64,000 bases of DNA, taken from Wickerhamiella versatilis (Eukaryota). Shown piece after piece: positions 4,408-61,096 of this stretch. Below the pieces are notes generated by a model. That model searched no databases. It saw only the letters and a program-made list of their open reading frames with translations, and was not told the origin of the DNA. Where the stretch lies: positions 682,001 to 746,000 of the forward strand of contig JAQOWU010000003.1 in NCBI GenBank assembly GCA_030867685.1, in the 5' to 3' direction. How positions within the stretch are numbered: the stretch's first letter is position 1; each line of letters starts with the position of its first letter. A program made the translations under genes and the position numbers.

Positions 4408-4940
4408 GACTTAGTAATTACGCCGGGTTACTTTGATGCTTTATATTCTTGTAGGGAAATCCGGATAGTGCGGCCACACTATGGTGATTCTTTTCATTTA
4501 GCACTCTATTTCTGATTTTGTTGGTGTCCTATCTGCCCAATCTTTAAAAAGTATTCTGGAATAACTTGTTTGCCTTCTCGAATTGTATATTTCATAATGA
4601 ACTTAAATCGTAGGGAGAAAGTTCATTTAATTCAGTTCCTTCTGATCCAATTTTATGTAGTGTTTGTCCAATTTATGGATTTTGTTAAGATTGGCAATTT
4701 CTCTTTCCATGTGATGTGTTCCTTGATTTATGATCATATGATACCAGTTCTAAGTTCTGAAATTTAATGTGTGGAAATGTGTGGAAAACACAAGAACAGA
4801 CAGTGAAGTCATGAATGTGAAAGTCATGAAGCATTTTTTAACCCAATTAACCTGTCTAGCTGAACAAATCTCAGCCAATCCAGACCTGAGACCGGTCGGA
4901 TCCCTCATTGACTCTTTTGGATAAGTGAGTTGCTAATTAG

Positions 4941-5267
4941 TTAGTCTGTAGGTGTTGGCCAGGGATTATGGAAACTGAGATCTTTCGTTAACTTCTTACG
5001 ATCTTCAGGCTTGGCCGGTACACTCTCTTCAAGGCATGCTCCACACAAGGGCAGCTCGCCTCTTTTTGAAGACTTCTGGCGCAGGCAATGCATGTGAACA
5101 TAGTGGCGACATTCGAGCATGACAGACCCAGGAATGGGGGCTGACTCTTTGCATATTTGACACTTTACTTGTTGAGTATGGGGAATTTTTGGTAGTTCAT
5201 AATTCTTGGAAACTTGATTTGGCTCAAAAATATCAGCCAATGGTGCCGGTGGTCCTAGCTTCTGCAT
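4941..5267 (-). CDS. Small RING-H2 zinc-finger protein
   Basis: CQIC-x12-C-x-H-x2-H-x2-C-x13-CGAC pattern in a 108-aa ATG-initiated ORF. Confidence 0.6.
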   Translation of the reverse strand: MQKLGPPAPLADIFEPNQVSKNYELPKIPHTQQVKCQICKESAPIPGSVMLECRHYVHMHCLRQKSSKRGELPLCGACLEESVPAKPEDRKKLTKDLSFHNPWPTPTD

Positions 5268-6136
5268 TTGTAGATTTGAGCATATCGTGGAGTTAGATTC
5301 GACTATATCTCTATTAATGAGCCCGCAGTGAGACCCGTACCCTAAAAACAGCTTTTCTAACGTGCAACATTTGCGGACAAATTATGAATCGCGAAAGAAG
5401 CGAAGTTTTAACAATTCTATAGATATCCACTGCTCCACTGATATACTGCACCCTTTGGTGACTTGTAACTCAACATACTCACTGGGCAAGGGTCATGACA
5501 CCATCATGATAAACTATATTATTACCAAGAGAAGATATGATAGAACGTAGCGGCATTGAGGTGCTGAGAAAAAATATAGATGTATTATAATATTGCGATG
5601 TAAGTGATTTAAAGTATCAATGCTATTTCCACTTCAAATATAGGTCATAAGGTGCTGCTCGGACTTACCAATTGGGAAGTATTTTATCCCACTTCCACAT
5701 CTACCTAATGCTTGGCGCCCTCACCGACAGCTTGGCAAAATTGAATAGCTTTAGAAGCTGAATTATAATCCCAGGAGCATGTGACTGAAATGTGGTCCAT
5801 ATTTGTAAAATTCTAGATATAAAGGCACGCTGTGCTAAAGTTCCATTGAAACTAAGACAAAGATAAATTCGGCAAAATTTGATTTCGCTGTGATTTTTGT
5901 CGAAGGCTATGAATTACCCTCACAAATTAACGAATTGATACAATCATCAGATCTAAATCAGTTCGATGCTTAAATAATTGAACTTAGACAATATTACATT
6001 ATGATTTGTTTCGCCAGGTCATTTCATACCTGATTGGCGGCAATAAATTACTTATGACTGTCCTTTCGACATTCGCTAATCTGACAGTCCTTTGCATGAT
6101 ATCGAGAGGACATCAACAGTGCTGACAAAGGCAGCT

Positions 6137-22789: not shown

Positions 22790-22828
22790 TACGTGATTAA
22801 CAATTTTATTAGATAATTTTTTCTACTC

Positions 22829-39035: not shown

Positions 39036-39861
39036 CGGCCGAAGTACAAAACTAGTTCCAGGAAAAATACTTGCATTTAATAATACTAGAATATATCTGT
39101 GAAGCAATGCCTGCATAGACTTTATAATTTTGGTAAATGGTATCTGGAAAAGCATGAACGTCAAGCTCTTTCTTCATGATTTTCAATCGAAATTAGTTCA
39201 TAAATAGAAATATTGTCGCTAGTTCTTTTTGGATCACGAGCTTATGGCCTAGTGCTCTAAATTTCACTCGTACCTTGTACCGAGGATTATGCTCCTTTTG
39301 CTAATAGGCTGTCAGCTTTATCAAACTTTAATATCTCGTAATCTGTCAATCCAGAATTGAAATACATATGATCATGATATTGCTACCAATCAAATAAAAA
39401 TTCATTTCCAATGATAATTCGTATTCAATGAACTTAGTGCATTCCTACGCTATTTGATCCCACTCTCTCCAAATGTTGCAATTAAGTTTGGTGAGAGCAG
39501 CAAGCGATACGAACGGAAGAGAATAGTGACCGGAGAAAATCATTGAGAATTGCTCTAATCTCCACGATCTGTCCAACAAAATTAATTCAAATTCCCAGTG
39601 ACCAAGAACATGGTAAATCTCAATCCGCTATCACGTCAATCTATCCAATTCTAGACGAAAAAAAAACCATCTCAAAAAATTATTAAAATTTCATGTCCGC
39701 TAAGAAAGTTTTAGAAATCACTCAAACTGTAGACCCTATGGGGTGCATAAGGTTTTAAGACAGGCTTGAAGAAGAAATCAAACACAATTTAGGAGGATTT
39801 TAGAGTATTCATTTGGGAAGAACACTCTTTTGTTACACTCTTGTGTCCAAGACAGAAACTA

Positions 39862-49250: not shown

Positions 49251-49289
49251 GCCTCGACTTAGAAATCGAGTTCGCCAAGAGGTTAGGTA

Positions 49290-49709
49290 ATGATTGCACG
49301 ACGCTTCTTTTCATCCTCGGCTTTTGTACGTCAAATGGAGTTTGTATCCACCAAGCTAGCTCCCCCGCCTGCCGCAGCATATAGTCAGGCAACTAAGTAT
49401 GGTGGTATCCTCTATGTATCCGGCCAGGTCCCCCTCACAGTTCAGAACAAAATGATCGAGGGAGATATCAAGGCCAAAGCGCAGCAGTGCTTTGACAACC
49501 TCGGGGCAATCTTGAAAGAGGGTGGCTCTGCACCTAACAAGGTCCTCAAGATCAATGTGTTTGCAACTGACATTGCCAACTTCGGAGCAATCAATCAGGT
49601 TTACTCGGGTTTCTTTGGCTCCCACAAGCCAGCACGCTCGTTCGTTAGCGTAAGGGACCTTCCACTTGGCTCTGATGTCGAGGTTGAAGCTATTGCTGCA
49701 ACCGAGTAG
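49290..49709 (+). CDS. MMF1: RidA/YjgF family enamine deaminase (Mmf1/Hmf1)
   Basis: YSQA, YVSGQVP, HKPARS and LPLGSDVEVEAIA. N-terminal presequence MIARRFFSSSAFVRQ followed by a second Met. Confidence 0.93.
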   Translation: MIARRFFSSSAFVRQMEFVSTKLAPPPAAAYSQATKYGGILYVSGQVPLTVQNKMIEGDIKAKAQQCFDNLGAILKEGGSAPNKVLKINVFATDIANFGAINQVYSGFFGSHKPARSFVSVRDLPLGSDVEVEAIAATE

Positions 49710-49791
49710 GTTTAGGGTTCGTAGTGATTTAGTTTACTCACGTAAATTTTTGTTTCGTGCACTAGAACGTAGATATACGAACAAGGCAGAT

Positions 49792-49840
49792 ATGTTTTGT
49801 TCGTCCCTGCTTAAGAAGGGTGTCTCCCATGTGCGTTACG
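49792..49840 (+). CDS. IDP1: Upstream coding exon of NADP-isocitrate dehydrogenase (mitochondrial presequence)
   Basis: ATG..TAC G|GTAAGT encodes MFCSSLLKKGVSHVRY plus 1 nt, and splices in frame to 50178. Confidence 0.8.
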
Positions 49841-50177
49841 GTAAGTTATTGAACCAGAATCGACGACGATTTGCAAACAGGTGAGCTGAGGTCGGAATCC
49901 GGTGAGAAAATCATATTTTCTCGGGCAGATTGTATTGCTTAATGGCTATCTGCTTTAAGGGTGATGTCTCTTTTCTAGGTTAAGTCCACAAACTGCATCT
50001 TCCTTCTCTTTTGCTATACTTGCCTTGTTGTCGTGACAAGAGCGACAACAACGCAAGGTGTTGATACCATAATCTACCCTAACCTTTCCGGCTTTCGGCC
50101 GACATCTCCACCTATTCAGCCCAATCAGACGCCGTCCCTTTCTGAATCATTGTGAACAGCGAACTAACAAATGGCAG
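49841..50177 (+). other. Spliceosomal intron (337 nt)
   Basis: Donor GTAAGT at 49841, branch point ACTAAC at 50163-50168 and acceptor CAG at 50175-50177. The phase-1 junction restores the IDP frame. Confidence 0.8.
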
Positions 50178-51415
50178 CATCTACAAAGATTCAAGTGAAG
50201 AATCCCATCGTTGACCTCGATGGTGATGAAATGACTAGAATTATTTGGAAGAGTATCAAGGATAATCTGATTTTTCCCTACCTTGATATTGACCTCAAGT
50301 ATTACGACCTCGGCATTGAATATCGTGACCAAACAAACGATCAGGTCACTATCGATGCTGCCGAGGCAATCAAGAAATACCAGGTGGGCGTGAAATGTGC
50401 CACGATCACCCCAGACGAAGCTCGTGTGGAGGAGTTCAAATTGAAGAAGATGTGGTTGTCCCCCAACGGTACTATCAGAAATATTTTGGGTGGAACAGTC
50501 TTCCGTGAGCCCATCGTTATCGACAACATCCCTCGTCTTGTACCGGGATGGAAGAAACCTATTATCATTGGCCGTCATGCTCACGGTGATCAGTACAAGG
50601 CAACTGACATCGTCGTGCCTGGCGCCGGAAAGCTCGAGCTTGTCTACACACCTAAGGATGGTGGCGAGACTCAGCGCTATGATGTTTATGATTATAAGGG
50701 CCCAGGTGTTGGTATGGCTATGTACAATACCGATGAATCTATCACCGGGTTCGCCCACTCCAGTTTCAAGGTTGCTCTTAACAAGAAGCTGCCTCTGTAC
50801 ATGAGCACCAAGAATACCATCCTTAAGCGTTATGACGGTCGTTTCAAGGATATTTTCCAGGATCTGTACGAGAAGTACTACAAGGAAGACTTCGAGAAGG
50901 CTGGTATTTGGTACGAGCACCGTCTTATTGACGACATGGTGGCTCAGATGATCAAATCACAAGGTGGCTTTGTCGTAGCAATGAAGAACTATGACGGTGA
51001 TGTTCAGTCAGATATCGTTGCCCAGGGCTTTGGCTCACTTGGTCTGATGACTTCGGTTCTCCTCACTCCCGATGGAAAGACGTTTGAGAGCGAGGCTGCA
51101 CACGGTACAGTTACCCGTCACTACCGCCAGTGGCAGAAGGGCAACGAGACTTCCACGAACTCTATCGCGTCTATCTTTGCCTGGACTCGTGGTCTCATTC
51201 AGCGTGGTAAGTTGGATGGCACCCCAGAAGTTTCTATTTTCGGCGAGGCTTTGGAGAAGGCAGTAATTGACACTGTCGTTGTTGACGGCAAAATGACCAA
51301 GGACCTTGCTCTTGCTCGGGGTGAAACTGCTCGTAGCTCCTACGTCCTCACTGAGGAGTTCATCGGCAACGTTAAGGAACGTCTTGACAAGAACCTCAAG
51401 GCAGCCAACCTGTAA
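50171..51415 (+). CDS. IDP1: NADP-dependent isocitrate dehydrogenase (short isoform / exon 2)
   Basis: [47 protein letters not shown] and [10 protein letters not shown]. Ends in -ANL. Confidence 0.97.
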
Positions 51416-51715
51416 GTGTTCGCTTGCAGTCTTGAATTCTTTCCATAGTGAGGGCTGGACAGGCCTTATAAGTAGAAGTTTAGAATATAGAAGGTGGGTT
51501 GGATGAAAGGTTACAGCGTTTGATAGAATATTTCTAATGTGGAAGGAAAATTATTGAAAAGAGAGAGGGAACCCCAAAGTGAACAAGAAAAGCTATCAAT
51601 CAAATGCGTAGTGTGAAATCCTGATTGTCTTAAATACGTCATGGAACAGTAATCTATCCTTGCCCAGAAAGCACATTTAAGGCAGTCACATTCAGAGAAT
51701 AAGAACAGCCTATCA

Positions 51716-52847: not shown

Positions 52848-53282
52848 ATGTCGAGTGGTGTGAAGGTTAGCGACGACGCAGTCAAAGCTTTCAATGATTT
52901 TAAGCTGAGTGGTAAGAAGACCAGTCCTAACTATATCATCTATCGGGTCAACGATGACAAGACGGAGATTGTTATAGATAAAGAGGGCCGTACAGACAAG
53001 TACGACGAGTTTGTTGACCTGCTCCCGGAAAATGACTGCCGTTACGCTGTTTACGACTTTACCTTTGATCTCCCCAATGGCGAAGGCCATCGCAGTAAAA
53101 TTGTATTCATTACCTGGAGTCCAGATACTACGCCCATTCGCTCAAAGATGATTTATGCCTCGTCGAAAGATGCAATCCGCCGCGCACTTACGGGTGTACA
53201 TCTCGATATTCAGGGCACAGATTATTCGGAAGTTGCCTATGAAACAGTCCTTGAGCGCGCTTCTAAGGGTGTGCTCAAATAG
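52848..53282 (+). CDS. COF1: Cofilin (intronless)
   Basis: [20 protein letters not shown] and [23 protein letters not shown]. Confidence 0.96.

Positions 53283-54108: not shown

Positions 54109-54112
<4 letters not shown>
53477..54112 (+). CDS. Membrane-anchored RING-H2 E3 ligase-like protein (start at 53477 or 53510)
   Basis: One TM (VLGLMLTGILISLIIAMLAW) and CCICIEE..RTLECGHIFHNLCIVQWL..CPLC. Confidence 0.8.
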
Positions 54113-55798
<1,686 letters not shown>

Positions 55799-57007: not shown

Positions 57008-59428
57008 ATGATCCCTCTGTTACCGAAAGTTTCTCGTCTAGACGAAGCTGAGGGTTTACTGAGTGGTGCAGCGCTTGTGAATCTCAATGATGTGGGAGTT
57101 AATGCTGTTTTGGAATTTTTGAAACGTGGCCCATTCACCGATCTTTACACCAGGACAGATAATAGCAGCGATGCTTGGACGGTGCTGCATGCCGGCTCGC
57201 GTGCCGTTGTTGTACCCGAATCAGTAGCAAATTCTCTTGAAAGTGAGGGTGTTCCAAGAAATCGGCTTGTTCTCGATTCTTTTACCAACTCAGATGGTTA
57301 TCTTGGGTGCTTTGGTACTGTCGCCGACGCTCATTCGCTTGGTGATAAAATGTTAGTATTCACTGAAGATGTCTTGGGAGATGCAGGAATCCCCGTATTG
57401 TTTGGAGAAGAGGCATTACCAGAGGTTTTGACCTCTCGATTGACCAGCGATCGACCAGATGGTCTGTGGACTACCGTTGTTCTGGACTTGCAAGACCGTT
57501 GTTTGGGTCTATGCTATTCATCTCCAGAAAGCGTTCGTGAAGCATGTGCTAAACGTGAGGGAGTTTATCAATCGCGAAAACGAGGATTATGGCATAAAGG
57601 AGCGACATCAGGGGATACTCAACGCCTCGTGAAAGTGAAACTCGATTGTGATTCGGACTGCTTGGCCTTTAACGTTGAGCAGCAGGGTAGCGGCTTTTGT
57701 CACCTCAAAACAGAATCTTGTTTCACGGAAAACCATGGTTTGCCGAGGCTTGAGAAAACAATTTACCAACGATTGGCCGATGCTCCTGAGGGTAGTTATA
57801 CTCGACGGCTTCTGATGGAACCGGGCATGCTGGAAGCTAAAATAATGGAGGAGGCTGAGGAGCTTTGCGATGCCGACTCAAAACATGAAATCTCATGGGA
57901 GGCAGCAGATCTTCTTTATTTCGCTTCGGTAAAGCTTGCGAAATTTGGTGTGACTTGGCGAGATGTGGAGGCTAACTTGGATGCCAAGTCTCTTAAGATT
58001 TCCAGGAGAAGAGGAGATGTGAAGCCTAAATGGGAACACAAGCAGAAGGAGGCTACTGAGAAATCAGAAGAGCCACAACAGGGACAAGTAGCAATGAACT
58101 TGGCTGCTGCTGATGTTGGCATTTCTGTCGTAAAGGCTAGCGATGAGAAAGCCATAGAGTATGCACTTCGTCGCCCTGCACAATCCTCTAATGCCTTTGA
58201 GCTTTCGCGCCCTATTGTCGAGGACGTCAGAAAACGTGGTGATGCTTGCCTTGTTGAGCTCACGCAGAAGTTTGACAAGGCAAATTTGAGCTCCCCAGTC
58301 CTGAATGCACCTTTCCCGCCTGAGTTGATGGAAATACCTGAATCTTTGCGCAAGTCTATCGACCTTGCGGTAGATAATGTGCGCAAGTTCCATGCAGCAC
58401 AGCTGACCCCTGCACTAACCGTGGAAACAATGCCCGGTGTTACTTGCTCGCGCTTTTCCCGGCCAATTGCAAGAGTTGGCCTGTACGTACCAGGTGGCTC
58501 GGCTATCCTCCCATCCTCAGCAATTATGCTTGGTGTCCCCGCACAAGTTGCTGGGTGTAAGCATATTACAATTGCCACGCCTCCTAGGCCGGATGGCACA
58601 CCAAGTCCAGAAGTCCTCTACGTTGCTCACAAGGTGGGTGCGAAACAATTGCTGCTGGCTGGTGGCGCACAAGCAGTTGCTGCAATGGCATATGGAACCC
58701 AGAGCGTCCAGAAGGTCGACAAGATATTCGGTCCTGGCAATCAGTTCGTCACTGCTGCTAAGATGATAACATCTACGGACTTATCTGCGCAAGTTGCTAT
58801 TGATATGCCTGCAGGACCGTCAGAAGTATTGGTTGTTGCGGACACGAAGGCACGCAAAGATTTCGTCGTGTCCGACCTATTGTCACAAGCCGAGCATGGT
58901 CCTGATTCGCAAGTAATTTTGATTTCAATTGCTTGGTCTGCCGAGGATCTGAAGGAACTGGCAGCTGAGCTCGATAGGCAAACACGAATGCTTCCACGGG
59001 TAGACATTGTGCGAAAGGCACTGTCCCATTCCTGTGTTATTGAGGCAGATACGCGGGAACAGGCCATGGCACTCGCCAACCAGTATGCTCCTGAGCATCT
59101 CATCTTGCAGTGCGAGAATCCAGATAAGCTAGTTGAATTGGTTGATAATGCGGGGTCTGTCTTCGTAGGGCCATTTTCACCCGAGTCATGTGGTGATTAT
59201 ACTTCAGGTACTAACCACACGCTTCCAACCTATGGCTACGCTAATCAATACTCTGGTGTCAACACTGATATGTTCTTGAAGTACCTTACATCTCAAACAT
59301 TGACTGAACAAGGTATTAGCAAACTCGGTAATGCAACTGTCGAGTTGGCTCGGAGAGAAGGTCTCGAAGCGCATGCAAACGCCGTTGTTGTCCGGTTGAA
59401 TGCATTGTCACCGAGTAGAAAATTGTAG
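57008..59428 (+). CDS. HIS4: Trifunctional histidine biosynthesis protein (PRA-CH, PRA-PH, histidinol dehydrogenase)
   Basis: SRKRGLWHKGATSG..DCDSD..GFCH, GSYTRRL..KIMEEAEEL, GLYVPGG, DMPAGPSE, QAEH and PEHL. First ATG at 57008. Confidence 0.97.
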   Translation: MIPLLPKVSRLDEAEGLLSGAALVNLNDVGVNAVLEFLKRGPFTDLYTRTDNSSDAWTVLHAGSRAVVVPESVANSLESEGVPRNRLVLDSFTNSDGYLGCFGTVADAHSLGDKMLVFTEDVLGDAGIPVLFGEEALPEVLTSRLTSDRPDGLWTTVVLDLQDRCLGLCYSSPESVREACAKREGVYQSRKRGLWHKGATSGDTQRLVKVKLDCDSDCLAFNVEQQGSGFCHLKTESCFTENHGLPRLEKTIYQRLADAPEGSYTRRLLMEPGMLEAKIMEEAEELCDADSKHEISWEAADLLYFASVKLAKFGVTWRDVEANLDAKSLKISRRRGDVKPKWEHKQKEATEKSEEPQQGQVAMNLAAADVGISVVKASDEKAIEYALRRPAQSSNAFELSRPIVEDVRKRGDACLVELTQKFDKANLSSPVLNAPFPPELMEIPESLRKSIDLAVDNVRKFHAAQLTPALTVETMPGVTCSRFSRPIARVGLYVPGGSAILPSSAIMLGVPAQVAGCKHITIATPPRPDGTPSPEVLYVAHKVGAKQLLLAGGAQAVAAMAYGTQSVQKVDKIFGPGNQFVTAAKMITSTDLSAQVAIDMPAGPSEVLVVADTKARKDFVVSDLLSQAEHGPDSQVILISIAWSAEDLKELAAELDRQTRMLPRVDIVRKALSHSCVIEADTREQAMALANQYAPEHLILQCENPDKLVELVDNAGSVFVGPFSPESCGDYTSGTNHTLPTYGYANQYSGVNTDMFLKYLTSQTLTEQGISKLGNATVELARREGLEAHANAVVVRLNALSPSRKL

Positions 59429-59579: not shown

Positions 59580-60344
59580 TTACTCCTGGATCTTCTGCGA
59601 ACCGCGCAGCAGACCAGTGCGACGGGCAGCAATGAGACCAACCTTTTGGCCAGGAACGGCGTTACGGTTGATTGTAGATGCCTTACCAATGTGCTGGTGG
59701 TTACCACCACCGTGAGGATGGTCAACAGGGTTCATAGCAACACCACGGGTGCGAGGCCAGCTGTTGCGCTTCGCCTTGTACTTGTGGTAAGCGTTACCAG
59801 CCTTGAGAAGAGGCTTATCAATACGACCACCACCTGCGACAACACCAATAACACCACGGCACTGGTTGCTGACAATCTTCTTAGCACCAGAGGGAAGCTT
59901 AATACGGGTCTTACCATCATCTGGGTTCTGGCCGATGACAATAACGTAGTTACCAGAGGTGCGGGCCAAAGAAGAACGGTCACCAGTCTTGCTCTCAACG
60001 CTGTGGAGAATAGTACCTTCAGGGACAGAGCCAAGGGGCAGAACGTTACCAAGCGACAGAGCGGCATGCTTACCAGCGTAGACGAAAGCACCTTCGTAAA
60101 TGCCCTCAGTAGCGACCATAGTCTCAACATTGGTCTTGTACTTGTAAGGGTCACGGAATGCAACCTTAACGAGGGGAGCACCACGGCCACTGTCGTGGAG
60201 GATGCTAACACATCGGCCCTTCAAGTACCCGTGACGCTCGGCGTAATCGAGGGTACGGAGCTTGGCAGCTCCCTTGCGCAAACGAGTATGCGCCTCGAAG
60301 ATCTTGGAATTACCCTTCCTCTGAGCACGAATCACGCGTCCCAT
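59580..60344 (-). CDS. RPL2: 60S ribosomal protein uL2 (intronless)
   Basis: [24 protein letters not shown] and [25 protein letters not shown]. Confidence 0.98.
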
Positions 60345-60415
60345 TTTTGGTGAGTGTCAGAAGTGCTGGATACGTGCGTACTTGTGAGAGTCAACCTGAG
60401 TACATCATGTAAGCA

Positions 60416-60423
60416 TTAGGGCT
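60416..60423. promoter_or_regulatory. Tbf1-like site TTAGGGCT upstream of RPL2
   Basis: Matches the TTAGGGCT motif used in ribosomal-protein promoters of non-Saccharomyces yeasts; about 72 nt upstream of the ATG. Confidence 0.35.
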
Positions 60424-61096
60424 GATGCCCTTTGATTACTATGCATGTATTTCATTCTTGAATAGACTCCTTAAGCAAGTACGTATGGGTTCAAGACAAT
60501 TGTTCTTGGTGTTTTTCATTAAACATTGAGTTTCTAGGCAGTATCGCACTAACCAATTGTATCTCCTGGATTCCTCACTGTATTGGGCTATCTTGCTACT
60601 ATTTAAATACCCAGTTCAGTATCTTTATATACGTCAGGTATTCTAACTGGGAAATACTAACTTTCTTAGTTCTGAAAAGTCTTGATAAGACGTGTACATC
60701 ATAAAGATTCACTACTTCACTATCAGGTCTCCACGACTTTGTATTACTCATCGACATGAAGGGAAGCAGGCTATTCCTCAAATAATCGTAGTCATTTATT
60801 AGAGGGGGGAGTAAATGGTACTATTCAATTATACGGGAGATACCAATAGAATTGAAATTGCTATTATACTCAGTCTTTTCCAAAAAAATAAAGCAAAATC
60901 ATTTCGCTTATCCAGCTTAGGAAATAAGCTGGGTAAGATTGGAAACTATGCACAATTTCAATACACAACCTAGAAAATGCATCGAATTAAATACGGAGTC
61001 CAGGATAATAGTCGTGTGTGGGTCTTCGGGTCGAGAGAGAGATCATGGTAAGCTTATCTAAATCCTAGAAGGCCTTGTGACCCCGGGACGACTCCA

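Follow-up and report, generated by a model that had tools for sequence, protein, structure and literature searches.

A Candidate Intronic Start Codon and a Probable Hidden First Exon in an NADP-Isocitrate Dehydrogenase Gene of a Compact Yeast Genome

Within a stretch of 64,000 nt from Wickerhamiella versatilis (assembly GCA_030867685.1, contig JAQOWU010000003.1, positions 682,001 to 746,000; the whole stretch is called the window, and all positions count from its first base), we analyzed a + strand gene for an NADP-dependent isocitrate dehydrogenase (NADP-IDH). Judged from its sequence, this single gene probably gives rise to two proteins whose start codons exclude each other, that of the shorter form being located within an intron. 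A long transcript would begin upstream of the first start codon (ATG1, 49792), and splicing of 49841-50177 from this transcript would remove the second start codon (ATG2, 50171) as well. The spliced product would encode a 428-amino-acid precursor with a mitochondrial presequence of 16-17 residues that would be cleaved off its N-terminus. The short transcript would begin within the intron, most likely in its ATG-free part (49967-50170), and could not be spliced because it contains no 5′ splice site; ATG2 would then be used to translate a 414-amino-acid enzyme without presequence, which would be cytosolic. Both starts would be strictly exclusive, since no more than seven bases separate branch motif and acceptor and ATG2 is packed into them. 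The ratio of the isoforms would be set by the choice of the transcription start and not by leaky scanning.

Identity of the Encoded Enzyme

The predicted product is a full-length eukaryotic NADP-IDH of the IDP/IDH1-2 type. Residues 9-399 of the 414-amino-acid open reading frame (ORF) match the Pfam family Iso_dh (PF00180) with an E-value of 1.8e-63. The best 120 of 8000 scored protein matches show identities of 77-99% at a coverage of 97-100%, and many of these 120 are named isocitrate dehydrogenase [NADP], IDP2, mitochondrial or peroxisomal. For translation, the reading of CTG (CUG) as serine or alanine was considered and ruled out by the leucine columns of the alignment: five of the six CTG codons of the ORF fall into columns in which leucine is the commonest residue among the 120 homologues, and two of the CTG columns are leucine in all 120, while the sixth CTG is the C-terminal codon. 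CTG was, therefore, read as leucine.

Predicted Gene Structure

Exon 1 (49792-49840, +) starts with ATG1 (49792-49794) and comprises 16 codons plus the first base, G, of a split alanine codon. It is followed by a phase 1 intron of 337 nt (49841-50177, +), which begins with the 5′ splice site GTAAGT (49841-49846, +; immediately preceded by G). Close to the other end of the intron, the branch-point consensus ACTAAC (50163-50168, +) is located 7 nt ahead of the terminal AG. It is followed by AA and then by ATG2 (50171-50173, +), which lies between branch point and acceptor, 4 nt ahead of the last intron base, is in frame with exon 2 and is itself followed by GCAG. The 3′ splice site CAG (50175-50177, +) contains the first AG after the branch A. 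Exon 2 (50178-51415, +) encodes the body of the NADP-IDH and ends with the stop codon TAA (51413-51415). When the intron is removed in silico, an open frame of 428 amino acids results and the split codon (G plus CA) reads alanine, whereas the ORF starting from ATG2 (50171-51415) has 414 amino acids; it ends with -AANL. The original prediction had proposed such a hidden exon and intron and had noted another in-frame ATG located after the branch point but before the acceptor. All its coordinates agree with the sequence, junction and frame are as it described them, and the second ATG is indeed present at 50171.

The intron also contains an inverted repeat (50019-50057, +) with arms of 15 nt, which are 93% complementary, and a loop of 9 nt; the predicted fold of the intron shows it as a hairpin. 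Such a hairpin would fit an intron whose retention is owed to a non-coding RNA, e.g., a small nucleolar RNA (snoRNA), instead of a promoter, and so would the considerable length of the intron in view of the compactness of the genome. We consider this explanation highly improbable. A search of 49600-50400 against Rfam, which covers few non-Saccharomyces yeast snoRNAs, returned eight matches, all sub-threshold (E-values of at least 2.3; 11.7-17.5 bits compared to gathering scores of 40-75). Further, the fold of the whole intron is unremarkable, with a minimum free energy of −88.3 kcal/mol and a z-score of −1.44; 8 of 100 shuffled sequences folded as well or better.

Splice Signals and Their Expectation by Chance

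A virtual intron was defined as an ATG-led frame of at least five codons followed by GTAAGT, GTGAGT or GTATGT, then by ACTAAC and the first YAG within 40 nt, such that the frame of the downstream ORF is restored. In 20,000 dinucleotide-preserving shuffles of the 461-nt spacer in front of the NADP-IDH ORF, an in-frame virtual intron appeared 11 times. The remaining 39 ORFs of the window have none within 461 nt upstream, even when loose motifs are included. Based on these results, exon and intron are unlikely to be a product of chance. The single motifs are not enriched: GTAAGT occurs 12 and 13 times and ACTAAC 15 and 5 times on the two strands of the window, which is at or under the expectation from base composition, and loose motif pairs are plentiful. 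None of the motif pairs elsewhere in the window links an upstream ATG frame to the start of another ORF. Intron candidates in the gaps 4408-6136, 39036-39861 and 60345-61096 were tried as well and rejected, as no coherent genes resulted. The claim that the intron is the only convincing one in 64 kb thus holds for 5′-proximal introns; for internal introns, the search was not exhaustive. That the intron was retained on account of an internal promoter, as the original prediction also put forward, is a hypothesis.

The position of the junction is informative, too. It aligns where the contiguous N-terminal extension of homologues meets the mature enzyme, and it recreates the pattern seen there in the alignment, i.e., a basic residue two positions before Ala/Ser, followed by the K-I-x-V core. 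According to an account of yeast introns (PMC2483917), ACTAAC is the branch consensus of budding yeasts, and a distance of 5-10 nt between branch and AG dominates in several species; the same source gives 5-10 nt for most introns of D. hansenii and 6-9 nt for most introns of E. gossypii. The spacing of 7 nt observed here falls inside these published ranges. On these sequence grounds, exon 1 and the 337-nt intron are very probably real, and we infer splicing itself from them.

Exon 1 as a Putative Presequence

The peptide encoded by exon 1 contains three Lys/Arg residues, one His and no Asp or Glu in 17 residues, and aligns with the ends of the presequences of homologues. Among the N-termini of the 40 ORFs of the window, the same composition is found in three. 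The 16-17 residues encoded by exon 1 would, as we infer, act as a cleavable mitochondrial presequence.

A further in-frame ATG (49675-49677, +) is located inside the preceding gene, and the frame of exon 1 is open up to there. This ATG would add 39 residues to the long form, if transcription began that far upstream. A protein search with the 69-amino-acid frame 49675-49881 gave no candidate counterpart of exon 1 in relatives, which is uninformative, as small ORFs are not called on the contigs of the relatives.

The Candidate Second Start Codon

Use of ATG2 by a transcript starting within the intron is plausible. The ORFs of three relatives, P0001 (99% identity), P0002 (92%) and P0005 (82%), begin at the methionine of ATG2. 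In 30 of the 120 best homologues, the core is preceded by 14 or more residues, and in 13 of these 30 an internal methionine stands 4-7 residues ahead of it; the corresponding distance of the ATG2 methionine is 5. The arrangement corresponds to the two starts reported for idpA of Aspergillus nidulans (PMC3798809). C-terminal ends of the form x[KRH][LMIF] are present in 10 of the 13 but in 3 of the 17 other long homologues, a comparison which is descriptive only, since the cut at 4-7 residues was set post hoc, counts were made by hand and the homologue rows are related. When a pre-set cut was applied (internal methionine within 12 residues), no significant association with an end resembling the type 1 peroxisomal targeting signal (PTS1) was detected (10 of 20 versus 3 of 10; Fisher P = 0.44).

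The region directly ahead of ATG2 (49967-50170, +), which forms the second half of the intron, is a candidate start-site zone and leader of the putative short transcript. It is free of ATG over 204 nt, contains 16% G and is pyrimidine-rich. Compared with the ATG-free stretches before the other ORFs, it is the second longest among 40 (median 59 nt), and a stretch of this length was reached by 2.45% of 20,000 random positions. A promoter-motif scan of the locus for CCTCGG and for the oleate-response motif CGG-N3-TNA-N9-12-CCG found neither of them. The sole promoter-like feature seen in the intron is a cluster of CGG/CCG triplets, CCGGCTTTCGGCCG, at 50088-50101, approximately 70-80 nt upstream of ATG2. 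Triplets of this kind are the type of site bound by zinc-cluster transcription factors.

Another way to obtain both forms would be a single promoter upstream of ATG1 combined with regulated or inefficient splicing, spliced RNA encoding the mitochondrial form. RNA with a retained intron would then encode the ATG2 form, whose translation would depend on reinitiation or leaky scanning. For GCR1 and APE2 of Saccharomyces cerevisiae, intron retention and an intronic start are not always distinguishable, as stated in the APE2 study (PMC7491326), and retention is the commonest splice variant in Yarrowia lipolytica, where it concerns 76 genes (PMC2911113). However, in an unspliced long transcript the frame of ATG1 stops after 30 codons, and two extra ATGs (49942 and 49964) precede ATG2. 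Consequently, such an RNA would be a poor template for the short form, and it would be a likely target of nonsense-mediated decay. Retention is, therefore, an improbable source of the short enzyme.

Phylogenetic Position and Alternative Readings

A FastTree phylogeny was calculated from the window protein and the 120 matches after trimming of N-terminal extensions; it provides local supports only and has a weak backbone. The window gene groups (support 87) with, among others, P0017, which has a contiguous presequence-like extension and ends with -EKL, and P0025, which ends with -AKL. Next to this group are a Nadsonia protein labelled “peroxisomal” and the IDP2-like clade formed by CUG-clade yeasts.

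Several observations weigh against two products of this gene. The virtual intron has a chance of 0.055% per gene, but with about 40 genes scanned this amounts to approximately 2% per window, biology aside. The composition of the exon 1 peptide is found in 156 of 1204 (13%) random ATG-open peptides of 17 codons and is weak evidence when taken alone. Between the stop codon of the upstream gene and ATG1 there are just 82 nt, a tight space for a promoter, although the spacers of other tandem genes in the window measure 39-113 nt. At the second start, no TATAWA is present in 49600-50200, and the base at −3 of ATG2 is C. The ORFs of the relatives which start at ATG2 could belong to plain cytosolic genes without upstream exon, in which case the conservation of ATG2 would be trivial. 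Finally, the gene is placed with IDP2/IDP3-like genes and apart from the yeast mitochondrial IDP1 clade (supports 84-88), and a separate mitochondrial paralogue may for this reason exist elsewhere in the genome.

Taken to their end, some of these points lead to a gene without splicing, in which ATG2 is the sole start and the splice signals arose by chance. The gene would be cytosolic and of the IDP2 type, and the 461-nt spacer would provide its promoter and leader together with the terminator of the upstream gene. The placement in the tree, the starts of the relatives' ORFs at ATG2, the share of equally basic random peptides and the chance for the window would all agree with this, as would the length of the spacer, which is inside the range of 39-1729 nt found in the window. 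It is nevertheless quite unlikely given how seldom virtual introns occurred in the shuffles and upstream of the other ORFs. In addition, the junction falls on the exact alignment position of the presequence ends of homologues and recreates basic-x-Ala/Ser, and an N-terminal presequence is expected in this gene family.

The opposite case, in which the intron is always spliced and the gene provides a mitochondrial enzyme only, would make ATG2 an unused relic of an ancestral start or a chance triplet. Strong splice signals, the missing TATA in the intron and the C at −3 point in this direction. On the other hand, three relatives, the most distant of them with 82% identity, have ORFs that retain ATG2, a leader free of ATG over 204 nt is rare at random positions, and a methionine occurs at the same place in fungal long forms. 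Further, a cell with this gene alone would be without cytosolic NADP-IDH. An exclusively mitochondrial product thus appears unlikely, and we favor two products with an intronic start for the short form.

With respect to its origin, the gene looks like an IDP2/IDP3-type gene with a gained or kept mitochondrial exon. Nearly every member of the surrounding tree clade starts with M-x-A-S, where x is Thr, Ala, Val or Pro. The codons of these four amino acids are fourfold-degenerate and can end in A, which would form an acceptor AG with the G of the following alanine codon. One might speculate that the mitochondrial form was gained secondarily, when a former promoter and leader became an intron behind a recruited upstream exon, e.g., after loss of an IDP1 paralogue, although we rate this scenario as unlikely. 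If it were true, the same hidden exon could sit unannotated upstream of many yeast genes which are read as purely cytosolic IDP, since the M-x-A-S codons can form the acceptor AG.

C-Terminus

Ahead of the C-terminal codons Ala-Asn-Leu (51404-51412, +), Ala occupies position −4 and Lys position −5. An -ANL end is shared by 3 of the 120 matches, namely P0001, P0002 and P0005. In favor of a signal, all three keep -AANL although they differ in the preceding residue (K or T), and the tree neighbours of the window gene end with -AKL or -EKL. However, a tail of -ANL is outside the canonical PTS1 pattern [SAC][KRH][LMI], and the -AANL tail is unlikely to be a functional C-terminal PTS1. The human catalase signal is -KANL, of which -ANL is the end (PMC2120961). 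As reported there by Purdue and Lazarow (1996), -ANL alone is no substitute for -SKL and a Lys or Arg at −4 is required, in human cells as well as in S. cerevisiae (PMC2120961). The literature search on -ANL as a fungal PTS1 yielded a plant paper and nothing relevant. The -AANL tail may represent a weak or decayed signal. That a share of the short form enters peroxisomes through it is conceivable but doubtful. Thus, the protein does end with -ANL, as had been noted when this tail was called weakly PTS1-like, yet with a non-canonical tripeptide and an Ala at −4, peroxisomal targeting is weakly founded.

A perfect GTAAGT (51412-51417) overlaps the stop codon of the gene (CT/GTAAGT). Splicing at this site would retain the final leucine and attach a new tail, and such a tail swap would resemble fungal cryptic peroxisomal signals. 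The only CAG acceptors that have a branch of the CTGAT type (51650 and 51668 as first exon bases) would give tails ending with -KHI. A second, 3′-terminal intron at 51412 was rejected, as no CTAAC branch site is found before the next gene; the motif is probably there by chance.

Genomic Context

The window has a G+C content of 44.5% and contains approximately 40 uninterrupted ORFs with ordinary eukaryotic housekeeping domains. Intergenic DNA sums to 11.8 kb, which leaves a coding share of approximately 81%; the window is a very compact, intron-poor, yeast-type chromosome stretch. In the whole window, neither tRNA genes nor Rfam families at gathering score were found. Divergent gene pairs are separated by spacers of 39 nt (22790-22828) and 40 nt (54751-54790), tandem genes by 39 nt (49251-49289), and one convergent gene pair overlaps by 4 nt (54109-54112). 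Because the spacers are that short, promoters and terminators of window genes must overlap neighbouring genes. The genes for ribosomal protein L2 (254 amino acids; 59580-60344, −) and for cofilin (144 amino acids; 52848-53282, +) are single uninterrupted ORFs. In S. cerevisiae, the counterparts of both genes carry introns. The intronless state of the two genes agrees with extreme intron loss in this genome.

Directly upstream of the NADP-IDH gene, a gene of the RidA/L-PSP family (49290-49709, +; Pfam Ribonuc_L-PSP, E = 1e-35) ends with its stop codon 82 nt before ATG1. Its N-terminus resembles a presequence (basic, Ser-rich), and a second methionine is found at residue 16, just ahead of the conserved domain starting at residue 22. 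This gene, too, may have two starts and serve two compartments. In S. cerevisiae, this family is represented by a pair of genes, one mitochondrial and one cytosolic.

Two further genes are of note. A HIS4-like ORF (57008-59428, +) comprises 806 amino acids from its first ATG compared to 834 amino acids in P0121, a relative with 99% identity. Either its true start may differ, or the gene call of P0121 may use another start codon. Annotated relatives are distant: identities of the matches of this protein drop from 99% to 81% and then to at best 56-57% for named proteins (Blastobotrys and Trichomonascus). In the largest gap of the window (4408-6136, 1.7 kb), a stop-to-stop frame of 146 codons with a RING-like Cys/His pattern was found (4941-5381, −). 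Its best Pfam match, zf-RING_UBOX (E = 3.2e-05), is just under the curated cut-off. This frame is possibly a small unlisted gene; among the intron models tried for it, none fitted.

Comparison With Known Systems

A gene of the proposed structure would first of all require a correction of the annotation. ORF-based gene calling yields a 414-amino-acid enzyme without presequence, here as well as in the relatives, and metabolic reconstructions of the lineage would consequently miss a mitochondrial NADP-IDH. Second, the APE2-type design, in which an intron parts an optional targeting exon from a second start, would be extended to a second enzyme family, namely in a distant yeast whose genome is very compact. 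Since the intron stands between the targeting exon and the second start, promoter choice alone would set the location of the enzyme. The gene is also a clean test case, with one junction, one candidate start zone of 204 nt and two N-termini.

A close counterpart in function is idpA of A. nidulans, from which mitochondrial, cytosolic and peroxisomal enzyme is made by alternative transcription starts (Szewczyk et al., 2001, as summarized in the review PMC3798809). The original prediction had named idpA as a one-gene precedent and S. cerevisiae as the three-gene case, and this review bears out both. As proposed for the window gene, idpA is a single NADP-IDH gene with two in-frame starts, of which the upstream one leads to a long form with an N-terminal mitochondrial presequence and the downstream transcription start to a short form without it; according to the same review, idpA also has a C-terminal peroxisomal signal (PMC3798809). 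Unlike the window gene, in which ATG2 is intronic and spliced away under the proposed mechanism, idpA-type homologues (long forms of Pezizomycotina and Lipomycetaceae) carry the second methionine inside the annotated protein. Further, these homologues end with AKL, SKL, EKL or AKI, whereas the window protein ends with the non-canonical -AANL. In S. cerevisiae, as described in PMC3798809 and PMC9549241, members of the same enzyme family serve mitochondria, cytosol and peroxisomes, but they are encoded by three genes, IDP1, IDP2 and IDP3, one per compartment, instead of one gene with two candidate starts.

In Y. lipolytica MDH2 and C. albicans GND1, an intron sends one metabolic enzyme of an intron-poor yeast to two compartments, according to PMC3372373 and PMC3798809. 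There, alternative splice sites add or remove a peroxisomal signal, whereas the intron in the window is a 5′ intron hiding a second start. The alternative 3′ sites of MDH2 are located at the C-terminus of the gene product.

With regard to the mechanism, a close counterpart is APE2 of S. cerevisiae, in which, as in its orthologues across Saccharomycetaceae, the first exon is optional and is predicted to encode a mitochondrial targeting sequence (Hurtig et al., 2020, PMC7491326). In the account given there, an AUG is located near the end of the intron and RNA-seq suggests a transcription start inside the intron. APE2 and its orthologue in K. lactis (PMC7491326) would use the same mechanism as proposed for the window gene, whose ATG2 likewise is in frame, lies close to the 3′ end of the intron and is kept in relatives. 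An intronic AUG is also used in S. cerevisiae GCR1 (Hossain et al., 2016, cited in PMC7491326), but this gene encodes a transcription factor and involves no organelle targeting. In the literature searched, no published description of an NADP-IDH with targeting exon and intronic ATG was found. The mechanism as such is already published for idpA and APE2, and the window gene adds neither a new mechanism nor a new question. APE2, in turn, is an aminopeptidase gene of the Saccharomycetaceae lineage. What sets the window gene apart is its enzyme family, the distant, unannotated lineage it belongs to and the placement of ATG2, which is squeezed into the seven bases separating the branch motif from the acceptor.

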